NCBI RefSeq assembly: GCF_024223415.1
Contig: NZ_CP100500.1
DNA from: Escherichia coli
Lineage (GTDB): Bacteria > Pseudomonadota > Gammaproteobacteria > Enterobacterales > Enterobacteriaceae
Direction: 5' to 3' (one strand)
DNA length: 64,000 bases
Shown: positions 3,776-28,504 of the stretch, one piece after another
Numbering within the stretch: the stretch's first letter is position 1
How the letters are laid out: every line of letters begins with the position of its first letter
Notes under the pieces: generated by a model
What the model was told of the DNA's origin: nothing
What the model saw: the letters and a program-made list of their open reading frames with translations, nothing else
The model's database searches: none
Program-made: the position numbers and the translations under genes

Positions 3776-5545
3776 ATGACCCCGGCACTGACTGAAAAAC
3801 TTGTTGAAACAGCCCGCGCGGCACGTAATGCAGGGCATGGTAAACGCGGTGCAATATACGACGCTGCCTGTGCTGAACTTGGCATGTCCCGCGCCACTCT
3901 GCTGCGCAGGCTGAAGGAGGTCTCTGTGACTGATAAACGCAAAAAACGCGCCGATGCCGGACGCAGCACCCTGACCCGCGACGAAGCCGCGCTGATATCT
4001 GCCACACTACGTGAGGCCACCCGCAAGAACGGTAAGCGTCTCTATTCCATCGCGGATGCAGTGGAAACCCTGCGGGCTAACGGCTTTATCTCCGCAGGCA
4101 GAACAGATGAAACCACCGGTGAGTTTTTCCCGTTGTCCGAAGATGCCATCAGTCGTGCCCTGCGTAACTATGGCCTGCACCCGGAACAACTGGATGCCCC
4201 TGCACCGCATACCGAAGTGGCCAGTCTGCACCCCAATCATGTCTGGCAGATTGACGCCTCACTCTGCACGCTTTACTACCTGAGCAATGGACATAAAGGG
4301 CTGCAGGTGATGGACAGCGCGAAATTCTACAAGAACAAGCCCGCTAACCTTGCCCGTATCGCCAGTGACCGCGTGTGGAGTTACGAGATTACCGACCATG
4401 CCAGCGGCTGGATTTACGTTGAGTATGTGACGGGTGCGGAATCCGGTGAGAACCTGTGTTCTGTGCTTATCAACGCCATGCAGGAGCGTGGCGGCGCAGA
4501 CGTGCTGCACGGCGTGCCAAAAATACTCTATCTCGACCCCGGCTCGGCAAACACCGCGGGTATGACGAAAAACATGTGCCGCTCACTGGGCATCGACCTG
4601 ATAGCGCACAAGCCGCATAACGCCCGCGCCACCGGACAGGTGGAAAAGGCGCGTGACATTATCGAACGCAAGCTGGAGCCGGGTCTGAAGTTCCGGCCGG
4701 TTCACAGTCTGGAAGAACTCAACGCGCTGGCCGCGAAATGGCGCAGCCACTTTAACGCCACGGCTGTTCACAGCCGCCACGGTAAAACCCGCACGGATAT
4801 CTGGCTGAAGATTACTGCTGAGCAGCTGAAAAAAGCGCCTTCCGTTGAGGTATGTCGTGAACTGGCTGTGGCGGCACCAGAACTCCGCAAAGTCACGCCA
4901 AAACTTCGTGTCTCGTTCCGGGGCACTGAATTTGACGTATCAACGGTACCGGGCGTACTGGTCGGTGAAAAACTGATGATTACCCGTAACCCGTGGCGCA
5001 GCGATGTGGCACAGGTGGTTCTGACCGGTGAGGACGGCCACGAGACGTTCTTCCTGGTCGAAGAGGTCAGAAAGAACGAGTTTGGCTTTGCTGAAGGCGC
5101 GGCGGTATTTGGCGAAAGTTACAAAGCCCTGCCGGAAACCCCGGCGCAGATGGCGGCAAAAGAAACCGAAGCGCTGGTCACCGGTACAGACAACGCCGCA
5201 GATGCAGCTGCCGCACGCAAGGCGAAGGCGCTGCCGTTCGGCGGGCGGCTTGACCCGTATAAACATATTGATGACGCCACACTTCCGGCCTGTATACCGA
5301 AGCGTGGTCAGGCCTCTGACGTACGCGGACCGCGCACTGAACAGCGTCCCATGACTCATGTGGAGGCCGCGAAAGCCCTGCGCGGGAAGTTTAGCGCAAA
5401 CGGCCTGACCTGGACGCCGGAACATTACCGCCAGTTAACGGCACAGTACCCGGACGGCGTACCGGAAGCCGCACTGGATGAAGTCATGGCCACGCTGACC
5501 ACGCCGGCCCGCAGCAGCGTTATCAGCATTGTTAACGGCAACTGA
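3776..5545 (+). CDS. Mu-like DDE transposase (MuA-type, integrase catalytic core)
   Basis: 589 aa; N-terminal HTH region, central rve-like core (HVWQIDAS...), immediately followed by an AAA+ B-like gene as in transposable phages. Confidence 0.85.
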   Translation: MTPALTEKLVETARAARNAGHGKRGAIYDAACAELGMSRATLLRRLKEVSVTDKRKKRADAGRSTLTRDEAALISATLREATRKNGKRLYSIADAVETLRANGFISAGRTDETTGEFFPLSEDAISRALRNYGLHPEQLDAPAPHTEVASLHPNHVWQIDASLCTLYYLSNGHKGLQVMDSAKFYKNKPANLARIASDRVWSYEITDHASGWIYVEYVTGAESGENLCSVLINAMQERGGADVLHGVPKILYLDPGSANTAGMTKNMCRSLGIDLIAHKPHNARATGQVEKARDIIERKLEPGLKFRPVHSLEELNALAAKWRSHFNATAVHSRHGKTRTDIWLKITAEQLKKAPSVEVCRELAVAAPELRKVTPKLRVSFRGTEFDVSTVPGVLVGEKLMITRNPWRSDVAQVVLTGEDGHETFFLVEEVRKNEFGFAEGAAVFGESYKALPETPAQMAAKETEALVTGTDNAADAAAARKAKALPFGGRLDPYKHIDDATLPACIPKRGQASDVRGPRTEQRPMTHVEAAKALRGKFSANGLTWTPEHYRQLTAQYPDGVPEAALDEVMATLTTPARSSVISIVNGN

Positions 5546-12023: not shown

Positions 12024-13052
12024 ATGACGCAGATGATTCCTAAAACGCAGGTCCCGGTAAAACGCGTCGGACGCATCGATCCCATTGCCTTCTTCGAGCG
12101 CTTCGGGGTACTGATTTTCATGATCCTGCTGCTGATCTTCTTTCAGTCGCAGAACAGTAATTTTTTCTCTGAACGCAATATTTTCAACATCCTGACCGAA
12201 GTCTCCATCTACGGGATCATGGCCGTGGGGATGACCTTCGTCATTCTGACCGCTGGGATCGACCTCTCCGTGGGCTCTATTCTGGCAGTGTGCGCCATGA
12301 CAGCGGCGTACGTGATCAAAGGCGACAATTTCACCACAGTCGATCCGAACGCTTGGGGCGGTATGAGCTGGCTGATTGGGCTGGGGATTTGTCTGACCAT
12401 GGGTACAGCGATTGGCTTCCTGCACGGTCTGGGCGTCACTCGCCTGCGCCTACCACCGTTCATCGTCACCCTTGGCGGGATGACCATCTGGCGTGGTCTG
12501 ACGCTCGTGATTAACGACGGTGCGCCGATTGCCGGCTTCGATCAGGGTTATCGCTGGTGGGGACGAGGGGAATTGCTCGGCATCTCCATTCCGATCTGGA
12601 TCTTCGCCATCGTTGCCATTGGTGGTTATCTGGCACTGCATAAAACCCGTTGGGGGCGCTTCGTCTATGCCATCGGTGGCAACCCGGAGGCGGCACGTCT
12701 GGCTGGGGTAAACGTGAAGCGTGTGCTGGTTAGCGTCTATGTGCTGATTGGCTGTCTGGCGGGGCTGGCGGGCTTCATCCTGAGCGCTCGTCTGGGGAGC
12801 GCTGAGGCGGTTGCCGGGATCTCCTTTGAGCTGCGTGTTATTGCCTCGGTGGTTATTGGCGGCACGTCGTTGATGGGGGGATATGGGCGCATCGGCGGCA
12901 CTATCATCGGCTCCATCATCATGGGCATTCTGATTAATGGCCTGGTACTGATGAACGTCTCGGCCTACTACCAGCAAATTATCACCGGATTAATTATCGT
13001 TCTGGCGGTGGCATTCGACACCTATGCCAAGAGCCGTCGCGGCGCACTGTGA
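12024..13052 (+). CDS. sugar ABC transporter permease (RbsC-like)
   Basis: 342 aa polytopic membrane protein downstream of the ATPase fragment. Confidence 0.8.
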   Translation: MTQMIPKTQVPVKRVGRIDPIAFFERFGVLIFMILLLIFFQSQNSNFFSERNIFNILTEVSIYGIMAVGMTFVILTAGIDLSVGSILAVCAMTAAYVIKGDNFTTVDPNAWGGMSWLIGLGICLTMGTAIGFLHGLGVTRLRLPPFIVTLGGMTIWRGLTLVINDGAPIAGFDQGYRWWGRGELLGISIPIWIFAIVAIGGYLALHKTRWGRFVYAIGGNPEAARLAGVNVKRVLVSVYVLIGCLAGLAGFILSARLGSAEAVAGISFELRVIASVVIGGTSLMGGYGRIGGTIIGSIIMGILINGLVLMNVSAYYQQIITGLIIVLAVAFDTYAKSRRGAL

Positions 13053-13060
13053 GGATCACG

Positions 13061-14194
13061 ATGAAAGAGGTTCGTATTGGATTGATTGGCACCGGGTATA
13101 TTGGCAAGGCGCATGCCATTGCCTATGCCCAGGCACCGACGGTGTTCAATCTGCGCGGCAAACTGGTGCGCGAGATGGTGGCTGAGGTGAACCCGGCGCT
13201 GGCGGCAGAACGCGCGCAGGCGTTTGGCTTCAATCGCTCAACCGGAGACTGGCGGGTGCTCGTGGCCGACCCGGCCATTGATGTGGTGGATATTTGCTCC
13301 CCTAACCATCTTCACAAAGAGATGGCGCTGGAGGCGATCCGCCACGGCAAGCACGTCTATTCGGAAAAGCCGCTGGCACTGAATGCCCACGACGCGCGTG
13401 AGATGGTCGACGCTGCGAAGCGGGCAGGGGTGAAAACGCTGGTGGGTTTCAATTACATGAAAAACCCGACGGCACAGTTGGCGAAAGAGATTATTGCGCG
13501 CGGCGAAATTGGTGAGGTGATCCACTTCTACGGAACCCACAACGAAGACTATATGGCCGACCCGCTTTCCCCTATTCACTGGCACTGTTTTAAAGAGACC
13601 GCCGGACTGGGGGCTCTGGGTGACTTGGCGGCACATATCGTCAATATGGCCCAGTATCTGGTGGGAGAGATTGAGCAGGTCTGTGGCGATCTGAAAATTG
13701 TGGTGCCGGCACGTCCGGCAAAGGCCGGATCGTCGGAAATGGTCACCGTGGAAAATGAAGATCAGGCCCACGCGATGGTGCGCTTTGCGGGCGGGGCGCA
13801 GGGCGTCATTGAAACTTCCCGCGTCGCCTGCGGCCGCAAGATGGGGCTGTCATATGTCATTACTGGTACCAAAGGAGCGATCAGTTTTACCCAAGAGCGG
13901 ATGGCAGAGATAAAGCTCTATCTACATGATGATCCGGTGAACCGTCAGGGGTTCCGGACACTGTTGGTCGGTCCGGCACACCCGGATTACGGCGCGTTTT
14001 GCATGGGCGCAGGTCATGGTATCGGCTTTAACGATCAAAAAACGGTGGAAGTGCGTGATCTGGTAGACGGCATTGCCACCGACGCACCGATGTGGCCGGA
14101 CTTCGAAGAGGGCTGGAAGGTCTCGCGCGTGCTGGATGCCATCGCACTCTCACACCAGCAGGGCCTCTGGCTGAACGTGAATGACATTGTCTGA
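13061..14194 (+). CDS. Gfo/Idh/MocA-family NAD(P)-dependent oxidoreductase (inositol 2-dehydrogenase-like)
   Basis: N-terminal Rossmann motif IGLIGTGYIGKAH; clustered with iol genes. Confidence 0.75.
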   Translation: MKEVRIGLIGTGYIGKAHAIAYAQAPTVFNLRGKLVREMVAEVNPALAAERAQAFGFNRSTGDWRVLVADPAIDVVDICSPNHLHKEMALEAIRHGKHVYSEKPLALNAHDAREMVDAAKRAGVKTLVGFNYMKNPTAQLAKEIIARGEIGEVIHFYGTHNEDYMADPLSPIHWHCFKETAGLGALGDLAAHIVNMAQYLVGEIEQVCGDLKIVVPARPAKAGSSEMVTVENEDQAHAMVRFAGGAQGVIETSRVACGRKMGLSYVITGTKGAISFTQERMAEIKLYLHDDPVNRQGFRTLLVGPAHPDYGAFCMGAGHGIGFNDQKTVEVRDLVDGIATDAPMWPDFEEGWKVSRVLDAIALSHQQGLWLNVNDIV

Positions 14195-14206
14195 AGAGGG
14201 TTCAAC

Positions 14207-16111
14207 GTGGAAAAGCAGTTTGATGTGATATGCATGGGCCGCGTGGCGGTAGACCTCTACAGCCAGCAAATTGGTGCCCGCCTGGAGGATGTGTCGAGCT
14301 TCGCCAAATATCTCGGCGGCTCGTCCGGCAACGTGGCGTACGGTACCGCGCGTCAGGGCTTACGCTCGTCAATGCTGGCGCGCGTTGGCGATGAACATAT
14401 GGGGCGCTTCCTGCGGGAAGAGTTAAACCAGGTGGGCTGCGATACCAGCCATCTGATCACCGATAAAGAACGCCTTACGGCGCTGGTGCTACTCGGCATT
14501 AAAGACCGGGACACCTTTCCTCTGATTTTTTATCGCGATAACTGCGCGGATATGGCGATTACTGCCAGCGATGTGGACGAAAGCTACATTGCCTCCGCAC
14601 GGTGTATTGCCATCACCGGGACTCACCTTTCTCACCCGCAGACCCGCGAGGCGGTGCTGACGGCGCTGAATTACGCCCGCCGTCACGGCGTGCGCACGGT
14701 GCTGGACATCGACTACCGTCCGGTGCTGTGGGGACTAACCTCTCTAGGAGACGGCGAAACGCGTTTTATCGTTGCCGAACAGGTTACCCGTGAACTTCAG
14801 GAGGTGCTACACCTTTTCGACGTCGTTGTCGGCACCGAAGAGGAGTTTCACATTGCGGGGGGCAGCACCGATACGTTGCAGGCGCTGGCGCAGGTGCGCC
14901 ACGTCAGCAAGGCGACACTGGTTTGCAAGCGCGGCGCGCTGGGCTGTTCGGTGTATACCGATGCCATTCCACCTCGGCTGGATGACGGTCTGACGGTGAC
15001 CGGCGTGCGTGTGGAGGTGCTTAACGTCCTTGGCGCGGGAGATGCGTTTATGTCTGGCCTGCTGCGCGGTTACCTGAACGACGAGGGCTGGGAGCAGGCG
15101 TGCCGCTACGCCAACGCCTGTGGGGCGCTGGTGGTCTCGCGCCACGGCTGTGCACCGGCGATGCCGAGCAAAATTGAGCTGGATGATTACCTCTCCCGCG
15201 CCGCGCTCGTTCCGCGCCCGGACATTGACCCGCGTCTTAACCATCTGCACCGGGTGACCACCCGCCGCCGCGAATGGCCGGAGCTGTGCGTGATGGCGTT
15301 CGATCACCGCAGTCAACTGGAAGATATGGCGCTGCAGTGCGGCGCGTCGCTTAAGCGTATTCCGGCGCTGAAACAGCTGATCCTGCAGGCCAGCCGAGAG
15401 GCGGCAAGCTCTGCCGGGCTGGAGGGGAAAGCCGGCCTGCTGTGCGATGGCACCTTTGGTCAGGATGCGCTGAACGCCATTACCGGCGAAGGGTGGTGGA
15501 TTGGTCGTCCCATTGAACTGCCAGGCTCGCGTCCGCTGGAGATGGAGCACGGTAACATTGGTACCCAGCTTATCAGTTGGCCGCAGGAGCATGTGGTGAA
15601 GTGCCTGGTCTTTTTCCATCCGGAAGATGCCCACGGCTTGCGTCTGGAGCAGGAGCAGAAAATCGCCGAGGTGTACCACGCCTGCTGTCAGTCCGGACAT
15701 GAACTGCTGCTGGAGGTGATATTACCCGCCACTATGCCGCGCAGTGACGAACTTTATCTGCGTGCCATTTCCCGCTTCTACAACCTTGGCATTTACCCCG
15801 ACTGGTGGAAACTGCCGCCGCTCTCCGCCGAAGGCTGGACGGCACTGAGCGAGATTATCGCGCGCCGGGACCCGCACTGCCGCGGCGTGGTGATCCTCGG
15901 TCTGGATGCTCCGGCGGAACAGCTGCGTGCCGACTTCAAAGCTGCCGCGGGGCAGGCGCTGGTGAAAGGCTTCGCCGTGGGGCGCACGCTGTTTGGCGAT
16001 GCCTCCCGCGCATGGCTGAAACACGATATTGACGATGCGCAGCTGGTGGCGCGCATCCGGGACAACTACCTGCAGCTTATCGCCTGGTGGCGCGAGCGCG
16101 GACACGCATAA
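14207..16111 (+). CDS. iolC: 5-dehydro-2-deoxygluconokinase (PfkB kinase fused to C-terminal aldolase-like domain)
   Basis: 634 aa; GTG start with GAAGAGGG RBS; PfkB motif GAGDAF; long C-terminal extension as in enterobacterial IolC. Confidence 0.75.
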   Translation: MEKQFDVICMGRVAVDLYSQQIGARLEDVSSFAKYLGGSSGNVAYGTARQGLRSSMLARVGDEHMGRFLREELNQVGCDTSHLITDKERLTALVLLGIKDRDTFPLIFYRDNCADMAITASDVDESYIASARCIAITGTHLSHPQTREAVLTALNYARRHGVRTVLDIDYRPVLWGLTSLGDGETRFIVAEQVTRELQEVLHLFDVVVGTEEEFHIAGGSTDTLQALAQVRHVSKATLVCKRGALGCSVYTDAIPPRLDDGLTVTGVRVEVLNVLGAGDAFMSGLLRGYLNDEGWEQACRYANACGALVVSRHGCAPAMPSKIELDDYLSRAALVPRPDIDPRLNHLHRVTTRRREWPELCVMAFDHRSQLEDMALQCGASLKRIPALKQLILQASREAASSAGLEGKAGLLCDGTFGQDALNAITGEGWWIGRPIELPGSRPLEMEHGNIGTQLISWPQEHVVKCLVFFHPEDAHGLRLEQEQKIAEVYHACCQSGHELLLEVILPATMPRSDELYLRAISRFYNLGIYPDWWKLPPLSAEGWTALSEIIARRDPHCRGVVILGLDAPAEQLRADFKAAAGQALVKGFAVGRTLFGDASRAWLKHDIDDAQLVARIRDNYLQLIAWWRERGHA

Positions 16112-17013
16112 TGGAGACGACAATGAGTGTACAACTGGGCATCAACCCGCTGACGTGGACGAACGATGATCTGCCTTCACTGGGCGCGGAGACATCTCTG
16201 GAGACCTGCCTGAGTGAAGGGAAAGAGGCCGGTTTTGCCGGCTTCGAACTGGGCAATAAATTCCCGAGAGAAGCGCGCCTGCTCGGCCCCATTTTGCAGC
16301 GCCACGACCTGCAGTTGGTCTCCGGCTGGTATTCCGGCCGCCTGTTGGAACGCAGTGTAGAGGACGAGATTGCTGCTGTGCAGTCGCATCTGACGCTGCT
16401 GCGAGAGCTGGGTGCAAAAGTACTGGTTTTTGCGGAAGTGAGTGGCTGCATTCACGGTGAGCAGCAGACGCCGGTTCACCTGCGCCCACGTTTCCCGCAG
16501 GAATGCTGGAAAGAGTATGGTGAGAAACTCACCGTGTTCGCCCGCTATACGCAGCAACAGGGGGTACAGATTGCTTACCACCATCATATGGGCACGGTGA
16601 TTGAGTCCGCTCAAGACGTGGACAACCTGATGCTCCACACGGGTGAGGAGGTTGGTTTACTGCTGGATACTGGCCACCTGACCTTTGCCGGGGCCGATCC
16701 GCTGGCGGTGGCACAGCGATGGGCATCGCGCATCAATCATGTTCACTGCAAAGATGTGCGCGCCGACGTGCTGGCGGACGTCAAAAACCGTAAAACCAGC
16801 TTCCTCGACGCGGTGCTGAGCGGCGTGTTTACCGTGCCGGGTGACGGCTGCGTGGATTATCCGCCGATTATGCAACTGCTGAAAACGCAGGATTATCACG
16901 GTTGGCTGGTGGTGGAGGCTGAACAGGACCCGGCGATCGCCCATCCGCTGACCTACGCCCGTCTGGGATATAACAATCTGAGCCGCCTGGCGCGCGACGC
17001 CGGGCTTATCTGA
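16111..17013 (+). CDS. iolE: sugar-phosphate isomerase/epimerase TIM-barrel protein (inosose dehydratase-like)
   Basis: start overlaps iolC stop (TAATG); N-terminal LGINPLTWTNDDLPSLG motif resembles IolE. Confidence 0.65.
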   Translation: METTMSVQLGINPLTWTNDDLPSLGAETSLETCLSEGKEAGFAGFELGNKFPREARLLGPILQRHDLQLVSGWYSGRLLERSVEDEIAAVQSHLTLLRELGAKVLVFAEVSGCIHGEQQTPVHLRPRFPQECWKEYGEKLTVFARYTQQQGVQIAYHHHMGTVIESAQDVDNLMLHTGEEVGLLLDTGHLTFAGADPLAVAQRWASRINHVHCKDVRADVLADVKNRKTSFLDAVLSGVFTVPGDGCVDYPPIMQLLKTQDYHGWLVVEAEQDPAIAHPLTYARLGYNNLSRLARDAGLI

Positions 17014-17022
17014 GGAGGTGAC

Positions 17023-17844
17023 ATGTCACGTCTGTTATCACGCTGGCAACAGCCGAACGCTGAGGGGCGGACTCAGTCTGTCACGCCGGAAAGCGCCGGA
17101 TGGGGATATGTTGGCTTTGAGGCCTATGAACTTGAGGAAGGGCAGCAACTGACGCTGCCCGCTGTCAGTGAAGAGCGCTGTCTGGTGCTGGTGGCCGGGC
17201 GCGCTTTCATCAGCACTCCTTCTGCACAGTTTATTGATATCGGGGAGCGGATGAGCCCGTTCGAGCGCATCAAACCTTGGGCGGTTTACGTCACCCCGCA
17301 GGAGGCAGTGCAGGTGAAGGCGCTGACGAAACTGGAGCTGGCAGTCTGTACCGCTCCGGGAAAAGGGACATACCCGACGCGGTTGATTGCACCTCAGGAT
17401 ATCGATGGCGAAGCGCGCGGTAACGGCCACAACCAGCGTTATGTGCATAATATTTTGCCGGAAGACAAGCCCGCTGACAGCCTGCTGGTCGTCGAGGTCT
17501 GGACCAACGAAGGCTGTACCAGTTCGTACCCGAGCCATAAACACGATACGAATAACCCGCCTCAGGAGAGCTATCTGGAGGAGACCTATTACCATCGCCT
17601 CAACCCGGAACAGGGGTTCTGCATGCAGCGGGTGTATACCGATGACCGCACACTTGATGAATGTATGGCGGTCTATAACCGTGACGTGGTCATGGTGCCG
17701 AAAGGGTACCACCCGGTGGCGACGATGGCCGGGTATGACAGTTATTACCTTAACGTGATGGCCGGACCAGTACGTAAATGGATATTCACCTGGGAAAAGG
17801 AACACTCATGGATAAACACAGAGTATTCTGCCATTTCTTTATAA
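17023..17844 (+). CDS. iolB: 5-deoxy-glucuronate isomerase-like protein
   Basis: 273 aa; family assigned from memory and from position after iolC/iolE. Confidence 0.6.
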   Translation: MSRLLSRWQQPNAEGRTQSVTPESAGWGYVGFEAYELEEGQQLTLPAVSEERCLVLVAGRAFISTPSAQFIDIGERMSPFERIKPWAVYVTPQEAVQVKALTKLELAVCTAPGKGTYPTRLIAPQDIDGEARGNGHNQRYVHNILPEDKPADSLLVVEVWTNEGCTSSYPSHKHDTNNPPQESYLEETYYHRLNPEQGFCMQRVYTDDRTLDECMAVYNRDVVMVPKGYHPVATMAGYDSYYLNVMAGPVRKWIFTWEKEHSWINTEYSAISL

Positions 17845-23867: not shown

Positions 23868-24143
23868 CTATTTTAATGGATTGTTAATCTTTGCATATTC
23901 AAACGGGCTGATACATTGTTCTCTGTTCGCATCCAGAAAATCTGCCCACCACTGTAGCATCAGTCGACGTTCTTCCAGATGTTCTGCTTTATGGATATAC
24001 GCAGCACGTACACCATTACGCTCCTGATGACTCATCTGACGTTCCACTGCATCGCGGGACCACAAACCTGATTTAATCAATGCACTGCACGCCATCGCCC
24101 GGAATCCATGGCCACAGACCTCTTCCTGCGTATTGTATCTCAT
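23868..24143 (-). pseudogene. 3' remnant of a P4-family tyrosine integrase (C-terminal ~90 aa only)
   Basis: GHGFR...RAAYIH...MLQWWADFLD aligns with the C-terminus of the intact integrase at 27068..28252; 5' two-thirds absent. Confidence 0.75.
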
Positions 24144-24451
24144 CAGTCTCAGTGCGTTATTGACCGTATTTTAACTAACGAGCTTGTGCCTGATTACCAA
24201 TAATTATCAGTTCATATTTTATGCAGACTTGTGCCAATCACTTGTTTTGAAAGAGGTTCTAAGATTCGTTGCATGCATTCTTGACCCTCAATGGTAATGT
24301 CTCGTTAAATATGATAGATATTAGCCGTAATTTTATTTTAGCGGGGTCGGTAAATTGGGGTGGAATTAGTCGATAAAAATATTAGAATACACTATTTTGC
24401 AGGCAAAATAGTGATATGATACATTTTTGTGTAAATTTATAAGGAGATAAG

Positions 24452-25375
24452 ATGGATAAGTTAAGGGCGCTAATTAGCCGAGCATCTAAGCTTTATAACA
24501 GGAATATAGATCATCTTCCAATAACTTTAGAACTAATCGAGTATTCAATGGGGCTTTTGGATAAGAAAGCAAGTTACGGTTATTTTGGTTCATTTGAAGG
24601 GAAAAAAGAAATAGACTACTATGCATTCTTTAGTAATAACGAGATCTCAAGACCTATTAGAGATGATTTATATATCAGAGATGTAAGTATCTATAAGAAA
24701 TTAAGTGACAACTTGTTTGTCGATTTAAAACAGTTCCGTTCTGTCTGGAGTTCAGATAAATCAATAGTAGCAAATAAAATTATATATACATCAGTTATGT
24801 CAGTTGCCTGCGCTTTTGATTTGTGGAAGAAAGGTAGTAGAAAAACACCTGGTACATTTTTTGAGATTTATATTGCTGCTCTATTGAAAGTAATGCTTCC
24901 GAATGAAGTTTTTTCAAAGCATATCCCATTGATTGATTCGATGAAAAATGATGAGGGGCTTAGAGATTCGGCGAATATTTCTACTGATCTGGTAATAAAA
25001 AGCCGCGCAAATGTTAATCGCGGAGTAGTTATCCCATTAAAAATAACAACAAGAGAGCGTATTGTTCAGCCATTTGCTCATCAACGAATTCTGGATTCAT
25101 ATTTTGGGAATGGTTTTTTTCATTCTTTCTTGGCATGCATTAGTGAAACTCAACAAGATAAGTTTAATCGAGAAGTAAACCATATATGTGTTCCTGGAAC
25201 AATACGATTGTATCAGAAATATTTATCAAGTATTGCGGGAATATATTATTGTGATATTCCAGAGAGATATTTACAAGCTGATTTGACCAGTATAATACCG
25301 GTCAAATCAATGGGGGAGTTTTTGTCAGATATAAATGATTTTTTTATGGAAATAGCTGAATCTGATCCTCATTAG
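24452..25375 (+). CDS. unknown 307-aa protein convergent with the C5-methyltransferase; putative Type II restriction endonuclease
   Basis: strong RBS (TAAGGAGATAAG); very AT-rich; 3' end overlaps the MTase 3' end by 32 bp; no nuclease motif recognised by eye. Confidence 0.45.
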   Translation: MDKLRALISRASKLYNRNIDHLPITLELIEYSMGLLDKKASYGYFGSFEGKKEIDYYAFFSNNEISRPIRDDLYIRDVSIYKKLSDNLFVDLKQFRSVWSSDKSIVANKIIYTSVMSVACAFDLWKKGSRKTPGTFFEIYIAALLKVMLPNEVFSKHIPLIDSMKNDEGLRDSANISTDLVIKSRANVNRGVVIPLKITTRERIVQPFAHQRILDSYFGNGFFHSFLACISETQQDKFNREVNHICVPGTIRLYQKYLSSIAGIYYCDIPERYLQADLTSIIPVKSMGEFLSDINDFFMEIAESDPH

Positions 25376-26468
25376 TCTTCTCAACAGGGTTTTGATAGTT
25401 GCTTTTTTCATAATTTTGTTTATTAAGACATTTAATAATTGCTGTTCCTGCCGCTTTAGCTACTGGCGGCGGAACAGCATTCCCAATTTGTAATCTTATG
25501 GCATCTCTTTTACCATAAAACCGATAGTCAACAGGGAATCCTTGTAACATTGCACCCTCTCTAAGAGTTATAGCTCTGTTCTGAGAAGGATGTCCATATC
25601 TGCCTCTGGTGAAGCTATCAAATCCCGCAGTAATTGTTGGACATTGTTTATCCCATTCAAGCCTCCCGTACACGTCAGGCCATCCGCCGGAGTTAGTATC
25701 AACATTTTGATGGCATTTTAGTCTCAAATCATGCGGAATATCCTTCCACCCCCCTCCGGGGGGAACATAAGAGAACCTTTCTTCATTAAGTTTAGTTATT
25801 TTACACTTAATATGATTAGGTATCTCGCAATGTTCACTATAATCGTCAGGAGGGGGAGGAAGATTACCAATAACATCTTTGATAGTAAGTTCGTTATCAA
25901 CTTTCTCCAGTTTAGGATAATCGCAGTTCTCAGATTTATCTATTCCGATCATAATAAAGCGCCCTCTCTTCTGGGCAACGCCAAAATCTGAAGAGCAAAT
26001 GAAAAAAGTGAATATGTTATATTTAAATAATTTCTCTTTTACTTCTCTTATTAAATCCTGTCCTCTCTTTTGTCCAAAAATTTCGACATTTTCAAACAGA
26101 AAAGCCCGGGGGTTTAGCTCATTTACCAGTCTGGAATATTCCAGTACTAACTTATTTCTTTCATCATTTAACAGATGAGCTCCTTTTCTTTGTTTGGAAA
26201 AGCCCTGACATGGCGGCCCGCCGCTAAAAAGATCCAGTCGGGAGTTTATTCCCGCTTTGTCTAAAAGAAACTTACCGCTAATAACCGAAGCATCTAATTG
26301 AAGACAATGCCCTCCAAGATTATTATTATATGTTTTCACGGCATCCTCATTGATATCAAATGCTAATTTGATATCGAACCCCGCTTGCTTAAGCCCAAGG
26401 GACATTCCTCCAGCACCACAGAAGCCTTCAATGCATGTAAGTTTTTGAACAGTATCAGCTTTACTCAT
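25344..26468 (-). CDS. DNA cytosine-5 methyltransferase
   Basis: motif I FCGAGG, motif IV PPCQGFS, motif VI ENV, motif VIII QKRGRF, motif X GNAVPPP. Confidence 0.9.
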   Translation of the reverse strand: MSKADTVQKLTCIEGFCGAGGMSLGLKQAGFDIKLAFDINEDAVKTYNNNLGGHCLQLDASVISGKFLLDKAGINSRLDLFSGGPPCQGFSKQRKGAHLLNDERNKLVLEYSRLVNELNPRAFLFENVEIFGQKRGQDLIREVKEKLFKYNIFTFFICSSDFGVAQKRGRFIMIGIDKSENCDYPKLEKVDNELTIKDVIGNLPPPPDDYSEHCEIPNHIKCKITKLNEERFSYVPPGGGWKDIPHDLRLKCHQNVDTNSGGWPDVYGRLEWDKQCPTITAGFDSFTRGRYGHPSQNRAITLREGAMLQGFPVDYRFYGKRDAIRLQIGNAVPPPVAKAAGTAIIKCLNKQNYEKSNYQNPVEKTNEDQIQLFP

Positions 26469-27067
26469 GTTAACTCACTTAATGCTCATTAATCTTCCTA
26501 GTATAACGATATTTATCAAACAAAACCATAGCTACATTTTAAACTAAAAGTAGCTAATAAGAACGATTGAATGACTTAATTTATATAAATAAGATATCCA
26601 GTATTGATACATCATGTGTTCAGCATGATGTATGTGCAACTGAAGCATCATTCGAAGTTTTCCTCAATATTCATATTCTGCATATATGCTATTCCAGATA
26701 ACTGGCCTGCCATTCGATATTATGACGAAGCCTGATTATGCTAATGCATCATACGCTATAACCCGGTATTTATGGCCACAGATATTTTGGATTGTGTCAT
26801 CTCCTGTAACCTTAAGGGGGGGATTGACGGTGTTTTATCTGCTTGCCCTGTGAGTACATGCATTTCCATAACATTCAGGCTATTTTCACCTACCGGAATC
26901 TGAAGTTCAGTCAGTATGCCTGCAACCTGTTTATGGTGTTGAACAGGGTTCAATAGCAGAATTTGGGCTTCTGGAGTGAGTTCAGAATGTGTTGGTAAAT
27001 CAAGCCACAATAAAACCGTTCAGTGGTCTGACTGGATGGCTCGTTATTATATCCACAGAGCTCTCAT

Positions 27068-28252
27068 TTATAGTGCGCACCTGGAGAGCGAATCAATGTA
27101 ATCTGCGTACCATTGCATCATTTCACGACGACCATCCAGGTACTGCGCATGGTTATAGGTACCCCTGATGGAATTTTTATCCACATGAGCTAACTGCATT
27201 TCAATCCAGGCAGAATTAAAGCCCTGTTCGTGCAGAATGGTACTCATGGTGTGACGAAAACCATGACCGGTTGCCCTGCCATCGTAACCGATACGTTTGA
27301 GCACCATATTGATGCTGGCTTCGCTCATTGGCTTGTTGATATCACAACGTCCCGGAAAAACCAGCCGGTATTGCCCGGAGAAAGTTTTGAGCTGCAGCAG
27401 AATGTCAGTGGCCTGTCGTGACAGTGGTACGACATGTTTACGTCGCATTTTCATGCGGCTTTCAGGGATTGTCCACAGGGCATTATCAAAATCAATTTCT
27501 GACCATTCAGCGAACCGTAGCTCAATGGTTCTGAGACCTGTCAGAAGCAGAAGATTTGTCGCCATGCGGGTAACAGGACTGCCATGATATTCAGCGAGCT
27601 TCCGGATAAAAGCTGGGAGCTCATCTGCTCTCAGGTGAGGGAAATGCGCCGCTTTTGGTGCCGCCAGTGTACTGGTCAGTTCAGATGCCGGATTGACAGT
27701 GGCTCGTCCGGTGGCGATGGCATAACGAAAAATCTGATTACAGTATTGGCGTACCTTACGAAGTTTCTCCAGCGAGCCACGTTTTTCTATGCGGCGCAGA
27801 ATTTCCAGCATTTCCAGCGGGAGGATATCAGTAACGCTTCGTTTGCCCAGATACGGAAAAATATCTTTATCCAGAGCCTCCAGTACGCTTCTGGCGTAAC
27901 TTTCAGACCATGACAAAGATTTATGCTGGTGCCATTCCGTAGCGAGGGCATGGAACGTATTGGTGGCAGAGATTTTCTGAGTGAGTTTTTCCTTTCGCTT
28001 CTTTTCGCCCGGGTCACCACCTTCGGAGATGATTTTTCGGGCATCGTCGCGTTTGATTCTGGCCTCAGCAAGGGAGACGTCGGGATAGACGCCGAGGGCC
28101 AGTTTTTTCTCTTTTCCTGCTATCCGGTATTTAAGCCGCCAGTAGCGGGCTCCCGTGGTTTTTACCAGCAGATATAAACCACGTTCGTCAGAGAGTTTAT
28201 AGTCTTTTTCTTTAGGTCTGGCTGTTTCGACCTGTCTGGCTGTAAGTGCCAT
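27068..28252 (-). CDS. P4-family tyrosine integrase (site-specific recombinase)
   Basis: 394 aa from MALTARQVETA; C-terminal HGFRHT...Y catalytic region; adjacent to tRNA-Phe 3' end. Confidence 0.9.
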   Translation of the reverse strand: MALTARQVETARPKEKDYKLSDERGLYLLVKTTGARYWRLKYRIAGKEKKLALGVYPDVSLAEARIKRDDARKIISEGGDPGEKKRKEKLTQKISATNTFHALATEWHQHKSLSWSESYARSVLEALDKDIFPYLGKRSVTDILPLEMLEILRRIEKRGSLEKLRKVRQYCNQIFRYAIATGRATVNPASELTSTLAAPKAAHFPHLRADELPAFIRKLAEYHGSPVTRMATNLLLLTGLRTIELRFAEWSEIDFDNALWTIPESRMKMRRKHVVPLSRQATDILLQLKTFSGQYRLVFPGRCDINKPMSEASINMVLKRIGYDGRATGHGFRHTMSTILHEQGFNSAWIEMQLAHVDKNSIRGTYNHAQYLDGRREMMQWYADYIDSLSRCAL

Positions 28253-28320
28253 ATGGGGGCTCCTGAAACTGACTGAACACAATGAGCCCCCACCGGTGCC
28301 CCCAATGAACGCTTGATTGA

Positions 28321-28410
28321 GAGAGAGTTCAGTAGAGTTCGGTGGAGTTCAGGATGTTCAGATTGCTTGTAACGATGTGATTATACTTGAGTTTCGTGGA
28401 GTTCGGGAGA
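28321..28410. repeat. cluster of 4-5 direct GAGTTC(A/G)G repeats between integrase and tRNA (possible arm-type recombinase-binding sites)
   Basis: GAGTTCAG, GAGTTCGG, GAGTTCAGG, GAGTTCGGG within about 90 bp. Confidence 0.4.
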
Positions 28411-28428
28411 TGAATCTGGAAGTGAAAG

Positions 28429-28504
28429 TGGTGCCCGGACTCGGAATCGAACCAAGGACACGGGGATTTTCAATCCCCTGCTCTACCGACTGAGCTATCC
28501 GGGC
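28429..28504 (-). tRNA. pheV: tRNA-Phe (anticodon GAA)
   Basis: reverse complement reads GCCCGGATAGCTCAGTCGGTAGAGCAGGGGATTGAAAATCCCCGTGTCCTTGGTTCGATTCCGAGTCCGGGCACCA, 76 nt with CCA end; flanked by yqgA-speC. Confidence 0.95.

Follow-up and report, generated by a model that had tools for sequence, protein, structure and literature searches.

The architecture of attL-integrase modules, and the roles of the two classes of repeated sites within them, are already known from KplE1 in Escherichia coli K-12, phage P4 and ICEMlSymR7A of Mesorhizobium. In KplE1, attL contains five sites for the excisionase TorI, 8-mers arranged in blocks I1-I2 and then I3-I5 separated by 2 nt, and the arm-type P' sites of the integrase IntS lie between I5 and the ATG, overlapping a -10 element (PMC2951348). 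When the published coordinates are placed on the K-12 sequence, I1 and I2 read CAGTTCGC and CAGTCCGC, I3-I5 read CAGTTCGT, TGGTTCGC and CAGATCGT with a 10-bp period, and direct and inverted repeats of the GGGTAAAA type follow after I5. The GenBank record of P4 annotates a 12-bp "attP arm sequence repeat", which occurs as a direct pair just upstream of int, as a single inverted copy across the int start, and as a second direct pair ~53 nt beyond the core. In ICEMlSymR7A, the arm-type consensus TGKTGGTATC is required for integration (PMC11963761). In this work, we analyzed a stretch of 64,000 nucleotides of E. coli DNA (contig NZ_CP100500.1; hereafter the window), in which a genomic island is anchored at the tRNA gene pheV by an integrase of the P4 family. 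We propose, with a probability of about 0.72 for the explanation as a whole, that the 176-bp spacer between the integrase gene (int) and the tRNA gene is the integrase-side attachment site, attL (in P4 attP, the arm between the core and int), and that it holds two repeat classes: an array of GAGTTC repeats (class A) for an excisionase, orphaned in the window, and TGGGGGC repeats (class B) for the integrase.

The only tRNA gene that ARAGORN detected in the window encodes tRNA-Phe (GAA) on the minus strand. It was identified as pheV because of the flanking genes yqgA, speC, nupG, mltC and mutY, which lie to the right of position 28504 and are 100% identical to those of several sequenced strains. 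The direct-repeat sequence of pheV islands is TTCGATTCCGAGTCCGGGCACCA, of which variants exist; repeats of 23 bp and 19 bp are listed in PMC11537424. The integrase gene reads away from pheV, and the spacer occupies positions 28253-28428. Thus, the anatomy described in the sequence-only reading of this DNA, that is, pheV, an intact P4-family integrase and a spacer of ~175 bp with direct repeats, was confirmed. From the tRNA gene to the end of int, the module is composed of the following features:

28429..28504, minus strand: tRNA-Phe (GAA), pheV (ARAGORN; flanks yqgA, speC, nupG)
28429-28451: last 23 nt of pheV, the core and direct-repeat sequence used by pheV islands
28389..28406, plus strand: class A block 1, GAGTTTCG (28389) and GAGTTCGG (28399), 10 bp apart; putative sites of a recombination directionality factor (RDF), equivalent to TorI sites I1 and I2
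28370..28385, minus strand: TATAATCACATCGTTA between the class A blocks, one mismatch from the integration host factor (IHF) consensus WATCAANNNNTTR
28325..28361, plus strand: class A block 2, GAGTTCAG (28325), GAGTTCGG (28335), GAGTTCAG (28345) and ATGTTCAG (28354), spaced by ~10 bp; putative RDF sites equivalent to TorI sites I3-I5
28312-28319: AATCAAG after class A block 2, invariant across genera
28286..28304, minus strand: class B direct pair TGGGGGC-N5-TGGGGGC with a 12-bp period; putative integrase arm-type sites
28254..28262, minus strand: class B copy in inverted orientation (int strand: GAGCCCCCA), ending 1 nt before the int ATG and overlapping the Shine-Dalgarno sequence AGGAG
27068..28252, minus strand: integrase of 394 aa ("SMS-3-5-type" pheV integrase), ATG at 28252; intact open reading frame (ORF) with Pfam domains

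The class A repeats, which the sequence-only reading had noticed, are real and far above chance. Four exact copies of GAGTTCRG occur on the plus strand at 28325, 28335, 28345 and 28399 (CYGAACTC on the int strand), and the copies at 28354 and 28389 are degenerate; Tandem Repeats Finder reports a period of 10. The whole window contains 11 matches to GAGTTCRG compared with 3.06 expected from shuffled sequences, a count reached in 0 of 100 shuffles, and the four copies within the 176-bp spacer compare with ~0.008 expected (Poisson P ~2e-10). All copies, two in one block and four in the other, have the same orientation and stand one helical turn apart. The array is located between the tRNA core and the TGGGGGC pair, and its two blocks match the experimentally mapped TorI segments I1-I2 and I3-I5 in position.

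The class B motif, which the sequence-only reading did not mention, reads GCCCCCA on the plus strand at 28286-28292 and 28298-28304, and the core of its inverted copy is at 28260-28254. It is the motif of the P4 arm repeat, TGGGGGCA(T/C), and in the P4 region between the core and the arm repeats GTCC repeats spaced by 10-11 bp take the class A position. Between the class A blocks, the element TATAATCAC...TTA (28370-28385) can be read as IHF-like or as a perfect -10 hexamer and is invariant across genera; it may act as a bend site or a -10 element. IHF sites were described upstream of P4 int and of intI in the pathogenicity island (PAI) I536 (PMC7286903).

Scanning one genome per species yielded 80 loci with related integrases (43-81% identity), whose hosts range from Enterobacterales to Nitrosomonas and Beggiatoa. 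Most of these loci have a tRNA gene, of one of nine specificities (Phe, Asn, Arg, SeC, Thr, Gly, Ser, Leu, Ala), that ends ~160-180 bp upstream of int. Nearly every spacer has the same order from tRNA to int: two short direct repeats; a TATAAT-like or IHF-like element; 3-4 further copies of the same repeat at one helical turn (class A); AATCAAG; and a second motif (class B), present twice in direct orientation, 12 bp apart, and once inverted, immediately next to the start codon. The class B direct pair with its inverted copy was detected in 72 of 73 related loci, and the layout is common to ~70 related integrase loci, phage P4, KplE1, where class A likewise precedes class B, and CP4-57. For a closer comparison, ten Phe-type spacers were aligned, namely those of the window, SMS-3-5 and eight from other taxa (Pectobacterium, Serratia, Lelliottia, Enterobacter, Yersinia, Pluralibacter and one metagenome-assembled Enterobacteriaceae genome), the integrases being 70-98% identical. 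The alignment contains a single one-base gap. The bases A..TC recur unchanged every 10 bp, and the copies of TGGGGGC are likewise invariant, whereas the positions between them have diverged; class A block 1 corresponds to invariant columns 33-37 and 43-47, and the element at 28370-28385 to invariant columns 51-59 and 65-66.

In the selC subgroup (L022-L030, L082), an insertion of ~135 nt separates the inverted class B copy and the ATG that follows it from the start of the integrase match; this may reflect a displaced start or a leader insertion. A duplicated selC in L027 was examined as a possible collapsed island and was uninformative. In E. coli F11 (L095, 1401-1583), the same integrase type with a spacer 78% identical lies beside ynjA, no tRNA is annotated in the record, and at the position of the tRNA end GGTACTACC takes the place of GGCACCACT, suggestive of a secondary or pseudo attachment site.

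The distal arms of relatives distinguish the two classes. In KplE1, CP4-57, E. coli 536, CFT073 and SMS-3-5, class B is found again 50-60 nt inside the distal repeat, as a pair with 12-bp spacing: AGGACCAacaatGGGACCA in CP4-57 (compared with AGGCCCAttgatAGGCCCA on its int side), GGGTACAaaagaGGGTACA in PAI V of strain 536, and TGGGGGCC/GGTGGCC in CFT073 and SMS-3-5. No GAGTTC-type or other class A motif was found near the distal repeats of these five elements, so in these relatives class A is not a motif shared by both arms, as integrase arm-type sites would be expected to be. Class B also tracks the integrase itself. Across 70 loci, as raw counts, residue X of the arm-domain signature W[RQ]xX[YF] is K with GGGG(G) motifs in 42 of 43 cases, R with GTATA/GGGTA in 14 of 16 and D with CGGTA in 6 of 7. 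The loci of Proteus mirabilis (L046) and P. cibi (L058) provide a natural swap: the C-terminal parts of their integrases are 96% and their RDFs 91% identical and both share the class A motif GTCTCCT, whereas identity drops to 49% in the N-terminal arm-binding domains, and class B reads GGGGTAC in one and GTATAG in the other. In this pair, class A does not change with the arm-binding domain. At ~1930-2270 of these loci, a block comprising the class B repeats and the first 90 int codons is exchanged between otherwise near-identical modules. Finally, loci L069 and L081 have the arm-type motif of ICEMlSymR7A as their class B. Because the KplE1 mapping, the P4 annotation, the recurrence on distal arms, the Proteus swap with the residue tracking, and the ICEMlSymR7A consensus agree, we assign the GAGTTC array, at odds of roughly seven in ten and by comparison with these relatives, to an excisionase of the AlpA/TorI/Vis family and the TGGGGGC repeats to the integrase as its arm-type sites.

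Several points weigh against this assignment. The binder of the repeats of this particular subtype, and hence the pairing of protein with class, is inferred by analogy. GAGTTCRG best resembles the TorI 8-mer CAGTTCGY on the opposite strand, which leaves its orientation relative to KplE1 ambiguous. The association between residue and motif was counted over loci related by descent, with phylogeny uncorrected. In the Proteus pair, class B and the N-terminal domain are physically adjacent, and their joint replacement could reflect linkage. Searches of the 64-kb window, of 50 kb of the SMS-3-5 island and of 20 kb of the Eco_70239 island yielded no AlpA- or TorI-like ORF, so that the putative binder is locally absent. 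The arm-type sites P'1-P'3 of phage lambda are tandem direct repeats as well, and spacing alone does not separate the models.

The integrase has the architecture of a heterobivalent tyrosine integrase, with Arm-DNA-bind_3 at residues 3-88 (E = 1.7e-26), Phage_int_M at 100-193 and Phage_integrase at 207-371. All catalytic motifs are present (LRTIELR at 240, GHGFRH at 329, LAH at 354, RGTYNH at 363) and align with those of IntS and P4 Int in an intact, full-length frame. The protein is 47% identical over its full length to IntS of KplE1, and likewise to the integrases of phages HK620 and Sf6; its identity is 42% with P4 Int and 43% with the common type of pheV intP4 (NCTC10444). Strain SMS-3-5 carries the same integrase type, which was set aside by Nhu et al. 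2024 as the most divergent intP4, an outlier (PMC11537424). Compared with Eco_70239, the sequence is identical throughout the tRNA gene, the spacer and the initial 101 nt of int, and the rest of int differs by ~3%. The int genes differ at 39 nt, and the codon differences comprise 26 synonymous and 7 non-synonymous ones, only 3 of the latter being internal. The ratio of 26 synonymous to 3 internal non-synonymous differences indicates that the integrase is under purifying selection. The spacer is present in 527 of 5,426 complete E. coli genomes and the module of int, spacer and tRNA in ~530, with a best identity of 98%, at both pheV and pheU. Homology to other genomes stops 12-14 nt before the int stop codon; therefore the module is a conserved anchor that carries variable cargo. 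Since this break falls inside the last four int codons, the cargo junction (27068-27081) rewrites the C-terminus of the integrase, which ends in RCAL here and in IQES in Eco_70239 and SMS-3-5.

If the assignment of the two classes is correct, a small winged-helix RDF of the AlpA/TorI/Vis family, when supplied, would polymerize along the phased GAGTTC sites, and this coating would bend the arm, possibly together with IHF at TAATCACATCGTTA between the class A blocks. The RDF would thereby assemble the excisive complex, direct the integrase to excision and probably repress or block int expression. KplE1 and P4 suggest by analogy that the integrase, once docked at the TGGGGGC sites, would repress or block the production of more integrase. 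As RNA, the inverted class B copy, which overlaps the ribosome-binding site, can pair with a direct copy. A consensus scan of the spacer revealed no sigma-70-like promoter and no terminator-like site; therefore read-through of int from pheV is plausible, as in ICEKp1 (PMC13023037).

The array is orphaned in the window because neither an excisionase gene nor a partner attachment site is present there. For the former, phmmer and then a profile built from TorI, AlpA and 12 ORFs of related loci were run against all ORFs of 35-40 aa or more, and no match was obtained in the window or in L001, L002, L004 and L089, the last two representing the distal 7 kb and the first 50 kb of the SMS-3-5 island. 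In related loci L015, L031, L041, L046 and L058, an RDF gene lies within 2 kb of int, the one in L015, from Enterobacter vonholyi, being the AlpA-family ORF at 3914-4171. The SMS-3-5 island was considered as a "native" reference and rejected, being a mosaic ridden with insertion sequences (IS) and having no RDF in its first 50 kb. For the latter, 23-nt and 16-nt queries with <=3 mismatches, as well as the 1-nt-deletion and CFT073-type variants of PMC11537424, detected no further copy of the tRNA 3' end in the 28.4 kb left of pheV; the island itself extends further left than the window. With these queries, 20 kb of the Eco_70239 island likewise gave no match. For another TGGGGGC pair, the island portion of the window gave matches at chance level only. 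Thus, a tRNA 3' repeat with an arm pair ~50-60 bp inside it does not occur within the window, and the distal end of the whole island lies to the left of it. The sequence-only reading had suggested that the island, or at least its integrase-proximal islet, may still be excisable and had proposed to locate the distal direct repeat. This search, run on the window, found none, and the visible part, in which the islet moreover ends in a truncated integrase gene, gives the suggestion no support. What is visible of the island looks fixed, even though the integrase and the region controlling it have been well preserved, and the junction is best described as an ordinary one that is probably immobilized.

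The strongest competing explanation, which we regard as possible although clearly less probable than functional excisionase sites, is that the class A copies are inherited, functionless sites in a decayed and fixed island, conserved through recent ancestry or recombination tracts. It accounts for the lack of an RDF gene and of a partner att site in the window and for the patchwork of Mu-like prophage, IS2, IS1 remnants and a truncated second integrase that makes up the island. The copies also vary among E. coli (CCGAACTC versus CCAGACTC; GAACTC versus GAATTC), and the difference-free tract from the tRNA into int could be a recombination tract. On the other hand, the integrase shows the mark of purifying selection, the phased A..TC columns have stayed invariant across genera while the positions between them diverged, and other AlpA-family genes, such as alpA in K-12, are usual in E. 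coli genomes and could act in trans.

An RNA- or transcription-based explanation, in which int is read through from the pheV promoter and the repeats form attenuating structures of the 5' untranslated region (5'-UTR) or roadblocks, is considered unlikely. Its precedents are ICEKp1, ICEEc1 and ICEclc, where int is driven by the tRNA promoter and attenuated by 5'-UTR stem-loops (PMC13023037), and it agrees with the lack of terminator-like and sigma-70-like sites in the spacer. The second direct class B copy, TGGGGGCTC, and the inverted GAGCCCCCA (28254-28292) could form a 10-bp RNA hairpin covering the int Shine-Dalgarno sequence. However, the folding energy does not stand out from that of shuffled sequences (z = -1.24), 24 of 200 of which gave an equal or better fold, the GAGTTC copies, all in direct orientation, do not pair among themselves, and the class B pairs on distal arms are left unexplained; moreover, such regulation is compatible with protein-binding sites rather than an alternative to them. 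The least probable proposal is that of the sequence-only reading, in which the GAGTTCRG copies are arm-type sites bound by the Arm-DNA-bind_3 domain of the integrase and bridge arm and core: the integrase does have such a domain, and the repeats are in the arm, direct, conserved, far above chance and helically spaced like the lambda P' sites, but the homologous KplE1 array is bound by TorI and not IntS, the annotated P4 arm repeats belong to the TGGGGGC class, the distal repeats examined have no GAGTTC-type motif, and class A stays unchanged when the arm-binding domain is swapped (L046/L058), so that of this proposal the accessory-protein sites in the attachment arm stand and the integrase as their binder is probably wrong.

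We also examined the DNA that the module anchors. The integrase-proximal islet (24177-28428, 4.25 kb) and the region to its left contain the following features:

24177..27081: islet cargo region, breakpoints from homology
26756-27010, minus strand: ORF of 84 aa downstream of int, no Pfam or PHROG match
25344-26468, minus strand: Dcm-type cytosine-5 methyltransferase
24452-25375, plus strand: ORF of 307 aa without a Pfam match, convergent with the methyltransferase gene and overlapping it by 32 nt
23871..24176, minus strand: remnant of another integrase gene (common type of pheV intP4), C-terminal 91 aa only, at the left edge of the islet
~18.6-19.9 kb: IS2, after the inositol cluster
12024-17844: inositol-catabolism cluster (iolC-like kinase/aldolase, iolE, iolB, sugar ABC permease), abutting the Mu-like segment
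1-11681: Mu-like transposable prophage segment (DDE transposase, MuB-like ATPase, Dam), running off the window

The 307-aa ORF possibly encodes a restriction enzyme. A megablast search found the islet cargo in none of the 5,426 complete E. coli genomes. The remnant is 92% identical at the amino acid level to residues 330-420 of the NCTC10444 pheV integrase, and the nucleotide match of 85% ends at 24176. The 5' two-thirds of the second integrase gene and its attachment site have been replaced by the islet with its intact integrase, with the breakpoint at 24176/24177, a pattern that points to accretion of islands at pheV followed by deletion. Because the left edge of the islet is a breakpoint inside this second integrase gene, the distal site of the islet, if ever present, has been deleted. 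Further to the left are a phosphoethanolamine transferase gene, IS1 and IS2 remnants, the inositol-catabolism cluster and the Mu-like prophage segment; the combination of the Mu-like segment, inositol cluster and IS2 beside pheV occurs in no complete E. coli genome.

The comparison of arms also touches the widespread islands of uropathogenic strains. The CFT073 pheV island has GGGTATA-type repeats on its int side and the TGGGGGCC/GGTGGCC pair, which is of the P4/SMS-3-5 type, 52 nt inside its distal repeat (L090:500-523, L091:320-345). Strain 536 has GGGTACA on its distal arm, matching its own integrase type (L092:236-256). A mismatch between integrase and arm is thus possible in the widespread intP4.1 islands. 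That E. coli pheV islands as a whole fall into two incompatible classes of arm-site specificity is a tentative idea that we consider rather doubtful. If it were true, widespread uropathogenic islands would be locked in by the mismatch, the enzyme capable of acting in trans on those distal arms would be the minority "SMS-3-5-type" integrase, which ~10% of E. coli carry, and the conserved, orphaned excisionase-site array would let a foreign AlpA-type protein trigger such action. Independently of this idea, the two repeat classes suggest a rule for reading P4-type junctions from sequence: a phased array beside the tRNA would mark excisionase docking, and a 12-bp-spaced pair with an inverted copy at the int start would mark docking of the integrase arm domain, a matching pair being expected 50-60 bp inside the far repeat. 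Such a rule would allow genome-based prediction of whether an island keeps both cognate arms and the excisionase, that is, whether it can move.

Among the described systems, KplE1 (CPS-53, at argW) is similar to the window in having a tRNA 3' end, a spacer of ~160-176 bp and an int gene reading away, as well as 8-bp direct repeats, spaced by 10 bp and grouped in two blocks, after which direct and inverted repeats abut the ATG; it also carries a pair of the second class, GGGTAAAAtagcGGGTAAAA, on its distal arm. It differs in the tRNA gene (argW versus pheV), in the motifs (CAGTTCGY and GGGTAAAA versus GAGTTCRG and TGGGGGC) and in the spacing of block 1 (20 bp versus 10 bp), and it is recombination-proficient with torI and attR, of which the window has no visible counterpart. 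P4 shares with the window the TGGGGGC(A) motif, arranged as a direct pair with a 12-bp period and one inverted copy across the int start, as well as the N-terminal domain signature YWRxKYR. In contrast, its Int is only 42% identical, its core is in a Leu tRNA gene, its class A equivalents are of the GTCC and not the GAACTC type, and it encodes Vis, whereas the window has no RDF gene. The GI-pheV islands with intP4.1-intP4.5 (CFT073, 536, EC958; PMC11537424) use the same insertion site and have a P4-type integrase beside pheV and mosaic modular cargo, but the common type has GGGTATA arm repeats on the int side, compared with TGGGGGC in the window, and keeps a terminator hairpin after pheV that the window lacks. 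ICEMlSymR7A (IntS/RdfS) is a distant system, a large conjugative element with other motifs and RdfS sites without a clear consensus. In the literature searched, no description of the GAACTC-type array of this pheV/pheU integrase subtype was found. The spacer and integrase gene described here are a well-preserved further example of the attL-int module of the P4/KplE1 type.

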